Source of the DNA: an uncultured Verrucomicrobiae bacterium
GTDB taxonomy: Bacteria; Verrucomicrobiota; Verrucomicrobiia; Limisphaerales; Palsa-1400
Length of the DNA stretch: 64,000 nt
Reading direction: 5' to 3'
NCBI GenBank assembly: GCA_963707025.1
Contig: CAVPOM010000004.1
Coordinates: 32,001 to 96,000, forward strand
Part shown: positions 29,601-41,600 of the stretch, one piece after another
Numbering within the stretch: the first letter of the stretch is position 1
Layout: each line of letters begins with the position of its first letter
Position numbers: made by a program

Positions 29601-32600
29601 TGCGTCACCGCGGATTGCATTCCCTGGCCTGCCTGCTTTCGGGGGTGATGTTCATGTTGTGCGGTCCGCATTTTTTGCAGGTTCATGCCGGGCATTTGCC
29701 CAACCTTTGCACGCTGATCTGGGCGCCGCTGTTGTTCCTGGCCATGGACCAAATGCTGGACCGGCCCGGCCTGGCCCCGTGCCTGACCGGCATGTTTGCG
29801 GTGGCCATGTCGGTTTTGGCCGGGCATCCCCAGTTCGTCTTTTACATGGGTGTGGCTGCCGGCGTTTATGCCGTTTTGATTCTCCTCCGCCACCGGCCGG
29901 GCGGGAAAGTGATTTTGGGGCTGGCGGCGATGGCGGCGGGCGGGATCGCCTTGAGCGCCGTCCAACTTTTCACCGGCTTGCAGGAAGGAGGCGAGACGAT
30001 GCGGAGCGTCGGGATGTCGTATGATTTCGCCTCCAGTTTTTCCTTTCCCCCGGAGAACTTTCTCACGCTGGTGGCGCCGTGGTGCTTTGGGGACATGAAA
30101 AACGACCTGTATTGGGGCCGGTGGGCTTTGACGGAGGTGTCCCTTTTCGTCAGCGTGACGGGCCTGGTGCTGGCGGTGCAGGGCATGGCGCGGGGACGGC
30201 CGGCCACGCGGCGGTTTTTAATTGTCCTGCTGGTCATGGCGCTGGTGCTGGCGCTGGGCCGCTACACTCCGGTGTTTCGCCTGCTCTTCGATTATGTGCC
30301 GGGTTTCAACGTTTTCCGCGGCATGGATAAATTCCTCTGGCTGGCGGCTCTGTTTCTGGCGGCACTGGCGGGGATTGGCCTGGACCAGATGCTGCGGGGA
30401 CAGGCGGTGGCGCGCTGGCTGATTTGGGGAGCGGCCGGGGCGGGATTGGCGCTGTGCTTGCTGGCCTTTTTGCCGGCCCACGCCGCCTGGTGGGGCCGCA
30501 TGCTCCAAGGGATGCATCCGGAGGGATCGGTCAACCTGCCGGAAGGATATTACAAAGACCCGCTCTTCATTTTGCACAGCCAATCCCAGGCCTCCTGGAG
30601 CCTGGTGCGGGGCGGCATTTCCCTGTTCCTGGCCAGCGCGCTTCTGGCCCAGGTCAAACCGCGCCGCCGCCTGGCGTGCGGGGCCTTGCTGCTGCTGGCC
30701 GTGATCGAACTGGCCGATTTCGCCGGGACCTCGCTGGTGACGTTCCGAATCAGCGCGCCCTATGCCCCCGCCGTGGCGCAGTTCCTGGCCCAACACCCCG
30801 GCGACTATCGCATCCGCCACTACAACCCCAACAGCGCCATGACGACCGGGGCCTTGGATGTTTCCGGCGATGATCCGGCGGGGCTGACGCGCTATATGCG
30901 GCTGCTCTATTTTTCCGCGGGCATTGACTTCGACAAGGCCCAGCGCGGCAACTTCGCCCAAGAACCCAATACCAATGTCCTGCGCATGTTGCGCCTGCGC
31001 TATCTTTTTTCGGACGATGAAAAGACTTGCACGGAGCTGGCGGGCGGATTGCCGCATTTGTTGCTGGTGGACCGGTTTCGGCTGATGACCAATTACCATG
31101 AGATTTTTTCCACCCTGACCAATGAGAATTTCAAGATGGAGGAAGAGGTGATTCTGGAAAGCCGGCCCTCGCCGCTGCCGCAGCCGGCCCGTGAAAAGGG
31201 AACGGCGCGGCTGCTGGAATCCTCCACCGACTCCCTTAAAATCGAGGCGGAAGTGGGGGCGCCCGCGCTGTTGCTGATCACCGACTCCTACAGCCGCGGC
31301 TGGCGCGCCCTGGCGCTGCCGGGCAGCACGCAAGCCCGCTACGAGGTGATGCCGGCCAACTATTGTTTGCGGGTGATTCCGCTGGCGGCGGGGCGCCATT
31401 TGTTGCGGGTCGAGTATTCGCCGTCCGGCTTTCGCGTGGGGAAAGTGGTTTCCATCGTGGCCTTGGCCGTGTTTTTTGTCCTGCTGGCGATGGTGGTGAA
31501 AAATCGTTTTTGGGATGGGAAGGAGCTGGCTCCCGGGTAAGGAGAGGGCGATTTTCCGCGGAAAGCCGCCGGGTCTTTTTTGTGTTTTTTTGGTGTTGCA
31601 AGTGGTCAGGGTTGCATTATTGTCTTCCATCTTAATCGGAAGCGAGCGTAGCTCAGCCTGGTAGAGCATCACGTTGCCAACGTGAGTGTCGAGGGTTCGA
31701 ATCCCTTCGCTCGCTCCATTTGCCCATTTGCGTCAGCGTGCGACAGACCGCGCCAAAGCCCCTCATTTACAAGCACTTGCGCGGGCTTTGCCTCTTCAAT
31801 CATTGCGACAGCTTGCGACCCGTTTTGACCCGCCGCGCCTAAAATCTGTGCGCGTCCTTGTGTATACCCCAACATCGGAGGCAATCCCTTGACAGCCTCG
31901 TAAATCTCAAATTGCGACCCATCCGTGTAACCGTCTGTCTGGTGCAGTGTTTGATGACGCATTTGCTTTCTCGCAAAATTATCGGAAATGCCGTGCTTGC
32001 GCATGAAAGTCGCGCAGGTGTAGCGCAGCGCATGAAAGTCGGCATACCGGCCTTGCTCATCCCGGTAGGCAACGCCAACCCGCTCCGAATCCACTTTGAG
32101 CCGGGAGGCACGAGGAATTCCATTGCGGAAAACCAAATCCGACGGCGACCACTGCGCCGGGCGAAAGTCTTTCAATGCCCCGACGATTTCAGGCATCAGG
32201 AAAACAGGCTCTTCTCTTTTGTTCTTTGCCGTTTCCGCACGAACCACGATCAGCGGATTTTGCGCGTCAAGCCGGACATCGCCCCATTGAAGCTGTTTCA
32301 GTTCTTCCTGCCGCAATCCCGTTGCCGCCGCAGTGAAATAAATTATCCCGCGCGGCCCCGACCCCGCGATCAGTTTGCGCAATTCCTCATCCGTGAATGC
32401 GCGGCGCACCCGTTTCTTCTTCCCGCGCTCATCCACCTTGCCGACGAATTTCAGCGGGTTGGACTTGATCCGCCCCGCCCGCTCCATCCAGTTGAGGAAC
32501 GAAATCGTACCCTGCAAATAATGGTTCATTGTCCGCGCCGCCGCTTTCTGCTTGTTGCGCCAGGCGATGAATGAATCCGCCGTGACATTGCCGGCCAGCT

Positions 32601-38600: not shown

Positions 38601-41600
38601 GCGGCGAGCTTTATGTCAATGTTTTTACAGCCCTACATCCGCATGGAGAGTTGCGCGGCTCCATTCTTCCGATTCCAATACCCGTCCCAAACGCCCCCGG
38701 CATTCAGCCTGTTATCAGCGTCTCTCCAAAATAGGCCAAGCAGCCGCGCAATGCTTGACCGTCTGCTTGCGGCACACAATTTCCTCACTCACCCGCCGTC
38801 TTCGATAGCGGCCTGTCCCACCGATTCACATCAGGAAACTTGTGAATCTTCCACCCCCGCGCCGTCAGCCATTTCTCCATGCCCTTACGCATCGGCCACG
38901 ACCACCGGACGTTCCCATCCGTCAGTAGCGGAAACTCGATCATGCACTCGTCGAGAACCCCGCCTTTTGTTATTCGCCATTATTCCATCTTGCTCACCTC
39001 CTTTCCAAAAATCATCCTGTGTCAGGACGCGCTGCCATGCGGCCTCTCTTTCCAATTCCGCCCGCCGCTTCCCGGACACCTTCTTTTTCGAGTGCCGCAC
39101 ATCCTCCAGTGTCAATTCAGAGACATGCAGCCATAATGGCAGGCGCGTCACCCCGTACAAGGCCACCTGTCGCCCAGGTACCTGCAAATTGTGCATCTTG
39201 ATGGCATCCACCAGAGCGGGGGCCATGCCTTCCTCATCCTCGCGGAAAACCACCGCCGGAAACAGATTCCCAAACCGAAACGCCCATTTCGGCCCGACCA
39301 ACTCCGCAATGTTGTCCTCCGTGATCCTGTTCCCATCCAGATTCAAGACCTCGACACTCTGGCGCACCATCTCCCGCCATAGTTGGCCACCTTGCGTTTT
39401 CTTGTTCCAGCCAAACTTGCAAGCCCACGGCGGACTTCTCATCTTGACCGCGCCAGGCAAATTCGGCCCATATTTGCAGCGAGGCAAAAGGGGTGCTTTT
39501 CTCCAATGCCCCCAATAACTGACCCGGCGCGCACCTTTATCCTCTGGCGTCCGGTTTTGGAAATCCTTCATCATGTATTTCGCGCAATAGCGTCCGGCTG
39601 CTTGCCCATCGCCTTTGACCGGCTGGCTTTCGCACCGACCAAACCCATAGTTTGGAGCATTGACACGAAGCCACTCCCACACTTCGCGCAAAGCCGCATT
39701 TGCTGTGTCATAGACCGGCGGGCGCACCGGCTTTCCGTCTTTCCCTTTCGGCGGGAAACAGGCGTCCCAATCAATGTTGCCCCGGATGTCGCGCTCGAAA
39801 ACGGCGACCAGGTGCGCGTGCATGGTTTGGTCTTTATGGCGCTCCCGCATGGTGATGCCCAACTGGAATTTTCGGGTGAAGGCCGACATGAAGGAATGCA
39901 AGCGCCGTTGGAATTCGTGCCGGTCTTTCACCTTGACAAACTTTCCGTTGTGGAATTCACCGCAGGTGATCGTAATCAAAAGCAAATGTTCCGGGCCGAA
40001 AGTGTCTGCCATCCATGCAACATTGCGCATGAAGGCTTCCATCTGTTTTGGCAGAGTGCCGGGCAGGACCGTCTTAGCTGCTCCATTCTCCTGAGTGGTT
40101 GCAGATGTTTCAGAAGGACAAGGAAGAGGAAGGGGAAGGCCGGGGCGGGCGGCCCTGAAGGGCCGCGCCGCCCCCGGCCTTTCCGCTTCGCCAGTTCGCT
40201 CCACATCTGACCGCAGAACCGGCGAGCAGTGGTGCTCGCTGTCCGGTTCTGCTCGCTCTACTTCGCCGCCGTGCCGCTCCGGTGTCACTGGCCCCCTTTA
40301 CTTGTGGCCGTGTCAACAATGGCGAGGATTGCGACCTTGAGCGCGGCAGGTAATTCACCCCAGGCAGCGACTACTTGCGACAGGTTTCGCCAGTCGTTGC
40401 CCTGAATCTGTGCGCGTGGTTGTGTATAGTCCCTTTCACCTTCGTTCGTAACAGGTTGATTTTCGGCAGGTTGTGGATTTTGCGGGGAAGGTTCGAATCC
40501 CTTCGCTCGCTCCATCTCCATCAACGACTTACGTCGATGGACATGGTTTTGCAACAGGTTTGCAACATCTCCGCCCCCCCGCCGGCCAAAAACCGGTCCC
40601 GACCCCGGAAGGTCCAAAAACTCGGTAGTGGTACAGTTTGAGGGGTGAGGCGTTACTTTCCACTTGATTCCGCCAGGCAGGGGCGCAAGGTTGCGCCATG
40701 CAAAAACGAGATTTGAATGAAACCGCCTTCGCGGTGGTCCAGCAGGCGACACGGCAGCCCCAAGCCCCAGCAAAACATCCCATCAGAGCCGTATCAGGCG
40801 AAAGGGTCGGGGCCTTAAAACCCGTCAAGCCCGGCAGAGTGAATCGAAAAGCTCGGTAGAAGCTCGGTAGATGCTATTTTTCAGGCTCCACTGTGAGCGC
40901 CCAAACAAGGGCAATGACCCAGCCAACACCAGTCCAGCCGAGCAAAAGATTTAAGACGAGTATCGCCATGTGGTTGCGTTTCTTTCGTCCAATGTAGGCA
41001 GGGATGAAATAAATACAAAATGCCACGGCCAACATGACTAGGGTGAGAACCAGGCTGAAAACGAGAGCCATCGTCCGGCCCATTATCATCCCAATCGTTT
41101 CCTCCTCGTCTGATCTGTCAAAAAACGCCCCGCAGAACGCAATCGCGAAAATTGCAGCCACACCCAAAATAGTCCAGGTTTTCTTGGAGATGGGCTTTTT
41201 GGGTAATTCAACGTGGAGCGGTGTGGCCTTTCGGCAATGTGGGCAGACGATGACTATTCCACGCTGATAGTTGGCGGCTTCAAATTCAATTCCGCCTTCG
41301 CAATGGACACACCAAGCTCGCAGCAACGGTTCTGACATAATTCCTTTCGCAAGCGGGAAGGAAAAAGGCGCGGACCCAGCGCACCCGAACGAGGCACTGC
41401 GAAGCGCCTTGAGGAGAATGCGCCGAGCCGCGGGTCTCCTCTGAAATTTCGCAGTTTTCGTTCGACCCTTACCGCTACGCTAAAATATCAATCGCAACTT
41501 TTAATCCCCGCTTTTTTTGAGTCAAGAAATTCCCATCAACAAAATGAAACCTCCAAACCTTACAGTCGCGCAAAAAGCCCAAATTCTTGGCGATCCGTTG

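Follow-up and report, generated by a model that had tools for sequence, protein, structure and literature searches.

Small tRNA-integrating elements of soil and peat Verrucomicrobia as probable rolling-circle replicons switched by excision

Comparable elements

In the myxophage Mx8, which has a tRNA target, the att site lies inside the integrase gene and only the tail is swapped; in the elements described here that tail comes from an unnamed but conserved family and is linked to rep. Archaeal suicidal integrases (SSV1/pTN3) also have att inside the integrase gene and a tRNA target but, in the available part of their description, lose the catalytic domain on integration (PMC8371274), whereas here all catalytic residues stay. 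In the pleolipovirus SNJ2, circularisation is described as joining the integrase unit to far-end genes and restoring the rep operon (PMC13107129). The elements here would resemble SNJ2 in an open reading frame created across attP, a restored rep operon and rolling-circle replication. SNJ2, however, is a virus of archaea that encodes virion genes along with a Rep_trans-like Rep; its attP frame is separate from int and its origin hairpin lies after rep (PMC13107129), whereas the present elements are bacterial, carry an HUH Rep and no virion genes, have the integrase's own tail at attP and hold their candidate origin inside rep.

Phasyl mini-plasmids resemble these elements in Rep family (~30% identity) and in an origin-like motif in the 5' part of arp, but phasyl-like plasmids are free, measure 1.3-2.3 kb and have neither integrase nor cargo. 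Phasyl has separate Ff-type origins, and no counterpart of these was detected in the elements. RS1 also carries an ssb-like gene, rstB. Like the present elements, RS1 and TLC are small integrated replicons with rep and no morphogenesis genes, and RS1 shares its replication module with its helper (PMC3545932, as far as the text is available), as two related loci (L252 and L289) do with the host inovirus. RS1 and TLC integrate at dif through host XerCD and their packaging has been demonstrated, as reported in the same source (PMC3545932), while the elements here differ from IMEX (RS1, TLC, CTX) in having their own tyrosine integrase and tRNA att sites.

Actinomycete AICEs such as pSAM2 have a tyrosine integrase and a single operon that unites int and xis with a phiX174-related RCR rep; the same int, xis and RCR rep set is found here. 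What defines an AICE, however, is an FtsK/SpoIIIE Tra protein, the group is restricted to actinomycetes, and the pSAM2 operon is intact while integrated (PMC3218068, available sections), whereas here rep is separated from xis-int and no Pfam match to such a transfer protein occurs in the host's own elements or in 21 relatives. Streptococcal IMEs likewise have an integrase with an RCR-type initiator, tRNA or other specific sites, toxin-antitoxin or restriction-modification cargo and no transfer machine, but their initiators belong to the Rep_trans, Rep_2, PHA00330 and Viral_Rep families, mostly with TcpA, and the available part of that survey does not mention an attP-in-int switch (PMC5704250). 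An integrase with an RCR-related initiator and no complete T4SS, the combination that marks an IME, is present in the elements described here.

The integrated element and its family

The window, the whole 64,000-nucleotide stretch analysed from an uncultured Verrucomicrobiae bacterium (contig C4), contains an intact integrated element of 8.8 kb at tRNA-Gly(GCC) (Table 1). The integrase, excisionase and Rep of the initial annotation were recovered as Phage_integrase, HTH_17 and weak PF23343 matches, and the att duplication, given there as 25 bp, extends to 29 nt. The arm-type repeats are putative Int arm-binding sites, and orf3 gave a faint TraK/StbA-like lead only (ESM Atlas rows at 0.84).

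Table 1. Features of the integrated element, in window positions
Feature	Position	Strand	Evidence
tRNA-Gly(GCC), integration target	31642..31718	+	ARAGORN, Rfam
tyrosine integrase, 429 aa as integrated	31669..32958	-	PF00589 2e-12
attL core (tRNA 3' end)	31691..31719	+	29-nt direct repeat with 40487-40515, 97%
left arm-type repeat, inside int 3' end	31805..31866	.	62 nt, 73% to 40367-40428
excisionase-like HTH_17 protein	32955..33161	-	PF12728 1e-9; phrog_66
orf3, small protein in slot upstream of xis	33158..33541	-	no Pfam or PHROG match
element C, conserved double long hairpin	33635..33835	-	folding z, covariation
XRE-type HTH regulator, cargo side	34243..34587	-	PF01381
cargo: secreted S8 subtilase	34624..36873	+	PF00082 3e-23
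cargo: secreted protein	36870..37766	+	C-terminal domain common to subtilase (tblastn cross-match)
cargo: CHRD-domain protein	37763..38734	+	PF07452 8e-13
HUH rolling-circle Rep, Phasyl-Arp-like, GTG start	38885..40288	-	weak PF23343, alignment, fold
candidate double-strand origin, inside rep frame	40096..40179	-	hairpin B 40138-40179, then CCTTGTC ~40096-40127
hairpin A, stem 40213-40252	40201..40270	-	homologous to IS21 istB 3' end
EXT, 76-codon frame, att core to rep start	40285..40515	-	in frame with int
right arm-type repeat	40367..40428	.	repeat match to 31805-31866
attR core	40487..40515	+	partner of 29-nt att repeat

The element belongs to a real and widespread family of small tRNA-integrating elements, as had been annotated, with a tyrosine integrase, an excisionase, a rolling-circle HUH Rep and variable cargo. 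Six copies in the host genome (C4, C2, C5, C9-Arg, C12 and C13), rather than the at least seven first counted, combine int, xis and rep. The reported decay is evident in C5 (internal deletion in rep, int in two frames), in C13 (frameshifted rep) and in remnants on C6, C9:386k and C18. Att repeats given as 28, 25 and 41 bp were found as 31 nt at tRNA-Pro (C2), 54 nt at 96% at tRNA-Asp (C5) and 46 nt in the 5' half of tRNA-Arg (C9). The 42-bp Phe repeat, by contrast, is not duplicated on C12: its sole partner is the tRNA-Phe on C6, and the C12 element occupies a secondary site with a 7-nt overlap (227061 / 234594). The C13 element lies between tRNA-Gly-type att copies at 1-20 and ~7568-7587. Relatives in other genomes measure 3-11 kb and use eight tRNA species as sites; they include 11 att-bounded elements of 2.9-11.2 kb and 6 further ones in 12 fetched regions, and their cargo consists mostly of toxin-antitoxin or restriction genes. 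The PF23343 Rep is found in 16 of 24 genomes of the host's family (up to 11 matches in one), and carriers are soil and peat Verrucomicrobia. Consistent with the initial annotation, no coat, pI or relaxase gene occurs in the host's own elements or in 21 related elements, and 100 ORFs of 21 elements include no virion or transfer gene.

The integrase frame across att

In the window, the int frame does not stop at the att core but crosses it and continues on the antisense strand of the tRNA. The catalytic residues R216, K245, H309, R312, H335 and Y344 are all present in the integrated form and all lie before att, as read out at invariant columns; only the tail after a disordered linker is swapped at att. 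Since the frame crosses attP, the circle form would gain a conserved tail of ~60 residues, running on into EXT and lengthening Int from 429 to 489 aa, and the EXT stop overlaps the GTG start of rep. The same continuity is found in C4, C2, C5, C13 and C6, and predicted circle-form lengths converge (489, 489 and 493 aa). Of 42 genome loci, 16 have EXT immediately ahead of rep, many with stop/start overlap; the EXT frame is open in all 16, while both other forward frames are stopped in all 16. Codon-position entropy is 0.96/0.48/1.37, the EXT helix has a coding pattern and an invariant frame, and the family comprises 5385 clusters. In its first half EXT consists of arm-repeat DNA, and the model shows this half as disordered.

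Natural proteins joining an integrase catalytic tail to EXT account for 5 of the top 150, and further fusions occur at L231 and L234, the latter 92-93% identical to the window; the script's test found none among 83 EXT loci in metagenome and viral contigs. Natural junctions of this kind may also arise from tandem insertion. EXT appears to be an integrase C-terminal tail that would be restored on the circle. This SNJ2/Mx8-like coupling of att-in-integrase to rep is counted as new here. It is not universal, as the C9-Arg and C12 types, which integrate through the tRNA 5' half and have xis directly before rep, lack EXT. No sigma-70 promoter that could serve the xis-int unit came out of a promoter scan.

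Replication initiator and candidate origins

The window Rep has an HUH motif (H157/H159) and a two-tyrosine motif (Y234/Y238), which together with T106 are invariant in an alignment of 22 Rep sequences. Its modelled fold is HUH, with circovirus and geminivirus Rep domains as best PDB matches (prob 0.94-0.99, E ~0.007-0.02) and a microvirus initiator in BFVD (E 2e-5). By motif and predicted fold it would be an HUH superfamily I initiator of the phiX174 A/phasyl Arp type, and phasyl Arp proteins are the closest plasmid Reps to the C12 homolog. The two Rep types had been called unrelated, but both match PF23343 and are therefore distant relatives. They are exchanged on one chassis: at L235 an integrase 94% identical to the window Int accompanies a type-2 Rep.

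The likely nick site, judged by layout, is the GC hairpin B followed by CCTTGTC inside rep, a conserved candidate for the double-strand origin. The motif is found in 64 of 75 loci (it is absent from C9-Arg), the four type-1 copies take the first four places among 3113 genome sites, and the motif is kept although CCT accounts here for 9% of the codons for Pro, and TGT for 23% of those for Cys. The Rep region that it encodes is disordered in the model, and the hairpin B loops are mostly C-GNA-G. In two phasyl-type plasmids this motif recurs within the 5' part of arp, whereas ssb-type modules and the host inovirus have the hairpin plus CTTG layout after rep instead of inside. Element C (~200 nt) is a candidate single-strand (lagging-strand) origin, a role suggested by its layout: it lies on the rep strand in all 16 relative contigs holding both within 6 kb and downstream of rep in 15 of them. 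Its folding z is -5.8 on the rep strand versus -3.8, 16 of 51 pairs have compensatory changes (0 of 500 shuffles), and it has no Rfam match.

Inoviruses and the circular form

The host does carry an inovirus, with pI at the ends of C9 and C16 and ssb/rep copies on C7 and C16. An ssb is present in the C9-Arg element, but the likeness claimed for it amounts to 30% identity over 44 residues to the inovirus ssb. Among 80 metagenome EXT loci, 18 have an ssb after EXT; in 7 of these the ssb shares 70-72% and the rep 51-54% identity with the proteins of the host inovirus, and in 4 the host inovirus origin recurs at 82% over 50 nt, several of these matching loci representing a single element. The hairpin-B core of the window recurs in three inovirus copies and has 8 matches across the genome, against 0 in the reversed control. 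For hairpins A, A' and C the host inovirus contains no counterpart, the best match having E 0.14.

A contig of a public run had been said to join the element's end to its start. The only joint found (run X1, 40523->31804) does not bear this out, and the claim perhaps came from another run or element. Its 32-nt side consists of the att core and 8 nt from beyond the element, the letters between being unknown, and its depth is 23.8 versus ~5 for the element, which fits an ordinary left junction of a relative and not a circle. Four runs contained no valid attP joint and gave no sign of a circle, ssDNA or copy-number gain (element depth ~1-1.6x flank). In the four runs cargo is 96-99% identical, while host flanks are 88-90%, a pattern that speaks for mobility.

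Proposed mechanism and alternatives

The best explanation, and a probable one, is an integrative rolling-circle replicon switched by excision. A fixed chassis (regulator-xis-int, att sites and element C) would offer slots in which replication genes and cargo can be exchanged. As long as the element is integrated, rep would be severed from the xis-int transcript and silent, and excision by Xis and Int would rebuild a single xis-int-rep operon. Rep would then nick the hairpin-B/CCTTGTC site in its own gene and displace the rep-sense strand, and element C would be where a host enzyme primes the second strand. Int in its long-tailed form may favour re-integration, also in tandem or at secondary sites, while toxin-antitoxin and restriction cargo would stabilise the element and possibly defend the host. 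Transfer between cells is proposed to need outside help: transduction, uptake and vesicles together have a little less than an even chance, packaging of an ssDNA circle by a filamentous phage is a weaker possibility and conjugative mobilisation is unlikely.

The initial annotation placed the double-strand origin of both Rep types at hairpin A, which is indeed found next to rep, or to a remnant of it, on C4, C2, C5, C6, C9, C12, C13 and C18, near-identical in these eight copies and ~90 nt before the CCTTG motif. This reading is hardly credible: in seven of the eight copies the hairpin is inside the rep open frame, not directly upstream; of 42 genome loci with this Rep, only 5 have it and 37 do not, and it is missing from all 33 viral loci. 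Its occurrence beside IS21 genes, noted earlier, reflects homology to the istB 3' end; of 30 loci in relatives and the host genome, 16 are at istB ends, 8 precede Rep and 6 lie elsewhere. It also stands before ssb genes in modules with the origin hairpin after rep, another block takes its place in 9 loci, and the ssb-bearing tRNA-Arg element lacks it, the C9 copy sitting at another locus. Hairpin A is proposed to be an optional IS21-related leader module acting as a terminator or an antisense/priming signal. Nor do the elements look like passive integrative islands with a decaying Rep and an EXT of attP arm DNA open by chance. The many broken copies, the arm-repeat half of EXT and the lack of a circle in the reads would suit such islands, but the coding pattern and invariant frame across the EXT clusters, the invariant Rep catalytic residues and the swapping, not loss, of Rep modules make them very improbable.

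Mobilisable elements whose Rep doubles as a relaxase for a borrowed conjugation machine are somewhat less improbable. Streptococcal IMEs use RCR-initiator-like relaxases, 35 of 118 lacking a coupling protein in the available text (PMC5704250), and in the host three loci encode a MobF relaxase and three matches to TraG-D_C occur; half of an element C precedes a MobF gene on C14 by ~230 nt, and orf3 adds its faint lead. Yet the host genome (88% complete) has no VirB4-type ATPase, the 21 elements have no coupling protein or Mob domain, and such IMEs are tied to TcpA-type helpers of Firmicutes as far as that source describes them (PMC5704250). More plausible, though still doubtful, are obligate filamentous-phage satellites (RS1/TLC/phasyl-like) whose ssDNA circle is packaged by an inovirus, with A, A' or C as packaging signal or minus origin. 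The elements pair their own replication initiator with an absence of morphogenesis genes, as a satellite does, and lack the pI/Zot ATPase and coat genes of an inovirus prophage. A free size range of 3-17 kb would suit filamentous packaging, the inovirus ssb-rep-origin module recurs in some relatives and the hairpin-B core in the window as described, phasyl Arp is the closest plasmid Rep, and the closest viral Reps lie on IMG/VR contigs of 4-19 kb, 15 of 33 with a pI-like match. Against this, viral contigs in IMG/VR include no complete element (3 weak EXT matches), hairpins A, A' and C are unmatched in the host inovirus, and pI is not enriched with these Reps (1 of 36 Rep-bearing genomes versus 5 of 200 in the order; 2 of 24 in the family, both among the 16 Rep-positive; none in G239 with its 11 Rep matches), in a survey of assembled genomes that would miss non-integrating helpers. 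The earlier label of candidate satellites is favoured by the inovirus-type module of some relatives and opposed by the distribution of pI. The fuller proposal of a large undescribed satellite class is tentative to the same degree; it would combine its own tRNA integrase, module exchange with inoviruses, defence and secreted-protein cargo in size-free ssDNA particles, one recombination that lengthens Int and switches on Rep, and a tail serving as a PVC-wide directionality module.

Significance

A common mobile-element family is thereby defined that moves toxin-antitoxin, restriction and secreted-enzyme genes in a soil and peat lineage that is abundant and genetically intractable. The link of attP through the integrase to rep would be a bacterial counterpart of the archaeal SNJ2 switch, and it suggests what thousands of small unnamed ORFs next to tRNA genes may do. 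If packaging by inoviruses proved true, filamentous-phage satellites would extend far beyond Vibrio and enterobacteria. The mapped candidates for the origin and lagging-strand origin, together with the att sites, may serve as parts for a replicating or integrating vector for Verrucomicrobia.

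Element anatomy and proposed integrase switch

In the window element (Table), the integrase (int) frame crosses the att core and, in the integrated form, reaches its stop soon after entering the antisense of the tRNA, within a few residues. From attR the frame goes on for ~65 codons (EXT) and its stop falls on the GTG that opens the replication gene rep, a switch of the int frame through att to rep that the initial annotation missed. The same int-EXT continuity is found in the elements on host contigs C2, C5 and C13 and in the C6 remnant. Circle-form Int lengths, the window element included, are 489, 489 and 493 aa compared with 429, 442 and 423+ aa when integrated. 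A scan of species-representative genomes yielded 42 Rep loci, nearly throughout from Verrucomicrobiota, and EXT lies directly 5′ of rep in 16 of them; the EXT frame is open, and both other forward frames are stopped, in all 16, with codon-position entropies of 0.96, 0.48 and 1.37. Five of the top 150 EXT-profile matches open with the catalytic tail of an integrase and continue across att into EXT, and at L234, a locus outside the host genome, the end of int is joined to EXT with 92-93% identity to the window. Such junctions come from either circles or tandem insertions. A script found no full int-EXT fusion among 83 further EXT loci, and a weak search for longer EXT homologs returned a single protein of 147 aa and no complete integrase.

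At locus L231 a whole integrase is fused to a truncated EXT. The Int model built from it, informative on linker disorder only, places the catalytic core at residues 1-355, followed by a disordered linker. Integration would trim the tail only, because the modelled core precedes this linker. A complex prediction for Int (1-365) with the EXT helices scored 0.00, had no controls and weighs neither way. The myxophage Mx8 is a bacterial case of an integrase tail swap. The closest shown case is SNJ2, in which circularisation generates a reading frame spanning attP and re-establishes the rep operon (PMC13107129); a review describes self-disrupting recombinases as archaeal only (PMC8371274). In elements of the C9/C12 type, which target the 5′ half of the tRNA, rep follows xis, and these elements therefore have no need of the switch.

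The GC content of the window element, about 53-58%, is below that of most flanking sequence (about 60-65%). Its Int retains R216, K245, H309, R312, H335 and Y344, and its Rep T106, H157/H159 and Y234/Y238. The modelled Rep structure is an HUH fold whose best matches are the Rep domains of circoviruses and geminiviruses and the initiators of microviruses; a PDB sequence search with Rep and a tblastn search against 50,697 phage records gave no match, and close homologs among database records are from Verrucomicrobiota, which makes a soil or peat verrucomicrobium the very probable host. The Rep of the C12 element shows a ~30% match to 26 small plasmids; for several of them the annotation is phasyl Arp. 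An Rfam scan of 31000-42000 found nothing except tRNA, and promoter and terminator scans stayed at chance level.

The read data showed no circle of the element, whose depth is about 1-1.6x that of the flank. A run contig had been taken to join its end to its start. The one backward joint found, in public run X1, links 40523 to 31804, its 32-nt side consisting of the att core and eight outside bases followed by the arm repeat, and has a depth of 23.8 compared with about 5 for the element; we take it for the left-hand junction of a related element.

Table. Features of the window, its host genome and related loci (plain numbers count along the window, C4:32001-96000, and numbers after a contig name along that contig; L, loci from other genomes, metagenomes or viral contigs)
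Feature	Position	Size	Site or orientation	Content
Window (C4) element	31691-40515	8.8 kb	tRNA-Gly(GCC) one side, 29-nt copy of tRNA 3′ end other side	int + xis + rep
rep, XRE gene, orf3, xis, int	window element		minus strand	
Three secreted-protein genes	window element		opposite to rep/int	
EXT	40285-40515		attR core to rep start	
Hairpin A	40201-40270			
Hairpin B + CCTTGTC	40096-40179			candidate origin
Element C	33635-33835			two long stems
Element C fragments	26988-27087; 19905-19960; C5:78886; C13:132281; C16:134990; C18:242297; others			
Half of element C	C14:325167-325225			
Subtilase and neighbour	34624-37766			
Second island	40516-44500 on to C4:171057		tandem, past attR	
Superinfection-immunity gene	40874-41338		second island	
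Proteasome-subunit-like gene	41517-42476		second island	
C2 element		6.5 kb	tRNA-Pro	int + xis + rep
C5 element		7.5 kb	tRNA-Asp	int + xis + rep, broken
C9 element		16.8 kb	tRNA-Arg, att in tRNA 5′ half	int + xis + rep, also ssb
C12 element		7.5 kb	secondary site	int + xis + rep
C13 element		7.6 kb		int + xis + rep, rep frameshifted
Toxin-antitoxin cassettes	C5:270290-270940; C13:6845-7354; C6:496766-497100		EXT-stop/rep-start junction	
Extra-tRNA arrays	C2:106545-112159; C4:150761-153834; C8:72468-81806; L232:11091-13754			5-11 tRNA genes + HNH gene
Inovirus pieces	C16:177000-188046; C7:543000-550863; C9:444000-452346		contig ends	
IS21 elements with hairpin	L012:8037-8096; L013; L161-L188		at istB stop	

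Candidate origins

Conserved with this Rep is a GC hairpin (hairpin B), its loop in most cases C-GNA-G, followed by CCTTGTC. The heptamer occurs at 64 of 75 loci (seven lack it and four are cut by the contig start), against an expectation of about 0.03 per locus that we estimate from base content; this is the unbiased count, the rows of the motif profile having been picked by the motif, with four of 36 loci omitted (one near-duplicate, three without motif). The codons within CCTTGTC are minority ones (Pro CCT 9%, Cys TGT 23%), and the corresponding region of Rep is disordered in the model; because the minority codons sit in a disordered region, the constraint is on the DNA. In two phasyl-type plasmids CCTTGTC lies inside arp, type-2 Reps have a hairpin with GCTTGTC, and the host inovirus and ssb-type modules have a hairpin with CTTG positioned after rep. 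Initiators of the phiX174 type act at an origin that lies inside rep and has CTTG as its core. Hairpin B with CCTTGTC is proposed as the candidate origin, and the exact nick position is inferred. The two Rep types are distant relatives, for which we rely on common PF23343 hits and not on the hhalign score (probability 98.4), which is inflated by a shared hairpin-coded N-terminus.

The initial annotation had placed the origin at a shared hairpin directly upstream of rep (hairpin A). It folds well with its neighbours (z -4.8) and has eight nearly identical copies. This proposal is not supported: hairpin A lies within the rep frame, occurs at 5/42 genome loci and 0/33 viral loci, is replaced by an unrelated block at nine loci, and shares homology with the istB end of IS21, the istB stop codon falling in the hairpin loop. 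Among 30 fetched copies, 16 belong to IS21, eight precede Rep and six are other; since most are IS21 and others Rep-linked, the count of hairpins in relatives (16/24) mixes two elements. In the IS21 elements with the hairpin at the istB stop, a conserved TATAAT-like box precedes the hairpin by ~7 nt on the other strand, and the passenger genes located towards the IS end vary; hairpin and box are possibly an antisense RNA or priming signal.

The two stems of element C show compensatory change in 16 of 51 pairs, a level reached in none of 500 shuffles and far above that of slid controls. The fold is better on the rep strand, where element C lies in all 16 relative contigs containing it and rep within 6 kb. 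We interpret element C as a putative lagging origin primed by the host; it may instead be a packaging signal or a leader RNA. Half of element C also occurs ~230 nt before a MobF relaxase gene on C14. The oriT function that this position could imply fits the strict strand bias beside Reps less well than a lagging origin does.

Distribution, modularity and cargo

The host genome is a 6.96-Mb, 88%-complete assembly. At least seven elements had been counted in it; int, xis and rep occur together in six only, the family itself being real. The 42-bp repeat said to flank the C12 element at tRNA-Phe did not hold, as the sole match of that sequence is tRNA-Phe on C6; this element occupies a secondary site, where the overlap is 7 nt and each end has arm repeats. 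Remnants lie on C6, C9 (386k), C18 and at least three further sites. Scattered element C fragments, located next to toxin-antitoxin pairs and rep remnants as well as a BspA-type LRR gene, point to many decayed elements. Toxin-antitoxin cassettes sit exactly at the EXT-stop/rep-start junction at three places, bordered by duplicated copies of it, hinting that the junction is a capture hot spot. Past attR of the window element follows a second island, with a third att copy ~99 kb further; the end of the island nearest to the element carries the superinfection-immunity and proteasome-subunit-like genes and also IS1- and rve-type transposases. Arrays of extra tRNA genes adjoin mobile regions; one such array immediately follows the tRNA-Pro element, here as well as in a relative.

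Of the 42 Rep loci, 11 are att-bounded (2.9-11.2 kb; tRNA-Ser, Asp, Cys, Glu, Val and Lys). Among 12 further regions, taken from relatives, six are bounded, at Pro, Phe, Asp, Gly and Leu. PF23343 is present in 16/24 genomes of the host's family compared with 1/16 from other families. An order-wide DNA search scored three candidates per genome only and is an undercount. Outside Verrucomicrobia, the same Rep and origin motif occur in an att-bounded element at tRNA-Lys of a Nevskiaceae genome, in three Vitreoscilla loci and in inovirus-sized viral contigs (L064; L071-L073; L077-L109).

The cargo survey covered 21 elements, of which 15 have att repeats as their limits and six EXT and tRNA. Their 100 ORFs other than int, xis, rep and EXT encode toxin-antitoxin, restriction-modification, TIR, HEPN-MNT, Fic, Sel1 or unknown proteins, with no match to pI (the inovirus morphogenesis ATPase), relaxase, coupling protein, VirB4 or FtsK, which bears out the claim of variable-cargo elements free of virion and transfer genes. 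One run contig, with element C joined straight to the rep end, represents a cargo-free variant. In four soil/peat runs the window cargo is 96-99% identical compared with 88-90% for the host flanks (runs with a share <0.2 and three RNA runs being left out), which suggests recent spread of the cargo, judged from pieces not linked on one contig. The subtilase of the window and its neighbour share a C-terminal domain of roughly 70 residues, also found on further surface-type proteins of the genome and perhaps a lineage-specific sorting domain.

Relationship to inoviruses and known elements

Downstream of EXT, 80 metagenome loci carry type-1 Rep (10), type-2 Rep (8), a third type (2) or ssb (18), the remainder being short or unrecognised; at L235 an integrase 94% identical to that of the window is followed by a type-2 Rep. 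An obligate inovirus satellite would explain the seven ssb loci that resemble the host inovirus module (ssb 70-72%, rep 51-54%, and in four also the origin, 82% over 50 nt; L252-L256 are near-copies of one element) and have no coat or pI match, which is the RS1 arrangement (PMC3545932). However, pI is present in 1/36 Rep-bearing genomes compared with 5/200 across the order and 2/24 in the family, and it is absent from a genome with 11 Rep hits, which argues against dependence on a resident helper. Hairpins A, A′ and element C likewise have no match in the host inovirus, and obligate satellitism seems unlikely. The host inovirus pieces, about two copies at three contig ends, carry ssb, a short PF23343 rep with an origin hairpin after it, a 70-aa coat candidate, pI and an unusual integrase. 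For conjugation, the host genome has MobF and TraG-D_C genes, and VirB4 gave no hit in the 88%-complete assembly.

The elements are like pSAM2 but without Tra, and like RS1 but with their own integrase, and they add an SNJ2/Mx8-like excision switch; they fell outside AICEs, IMEX and suicidal integrases. Anatomy and switch, taken jointly, are probably as described here. A literature search, which reached few subscription journals, found no paper on this family, which is real and widespread and apparently undescribed. EXT belongs to no Pfam family, and its profile retrieves 5385 clusters at E<=0.001, far outnumbering the Rep loci found, with look-alikes most frequent in Planctomycetota; many further PVC elements therefore probably use an integrase tail of this att-in-integrase kind.
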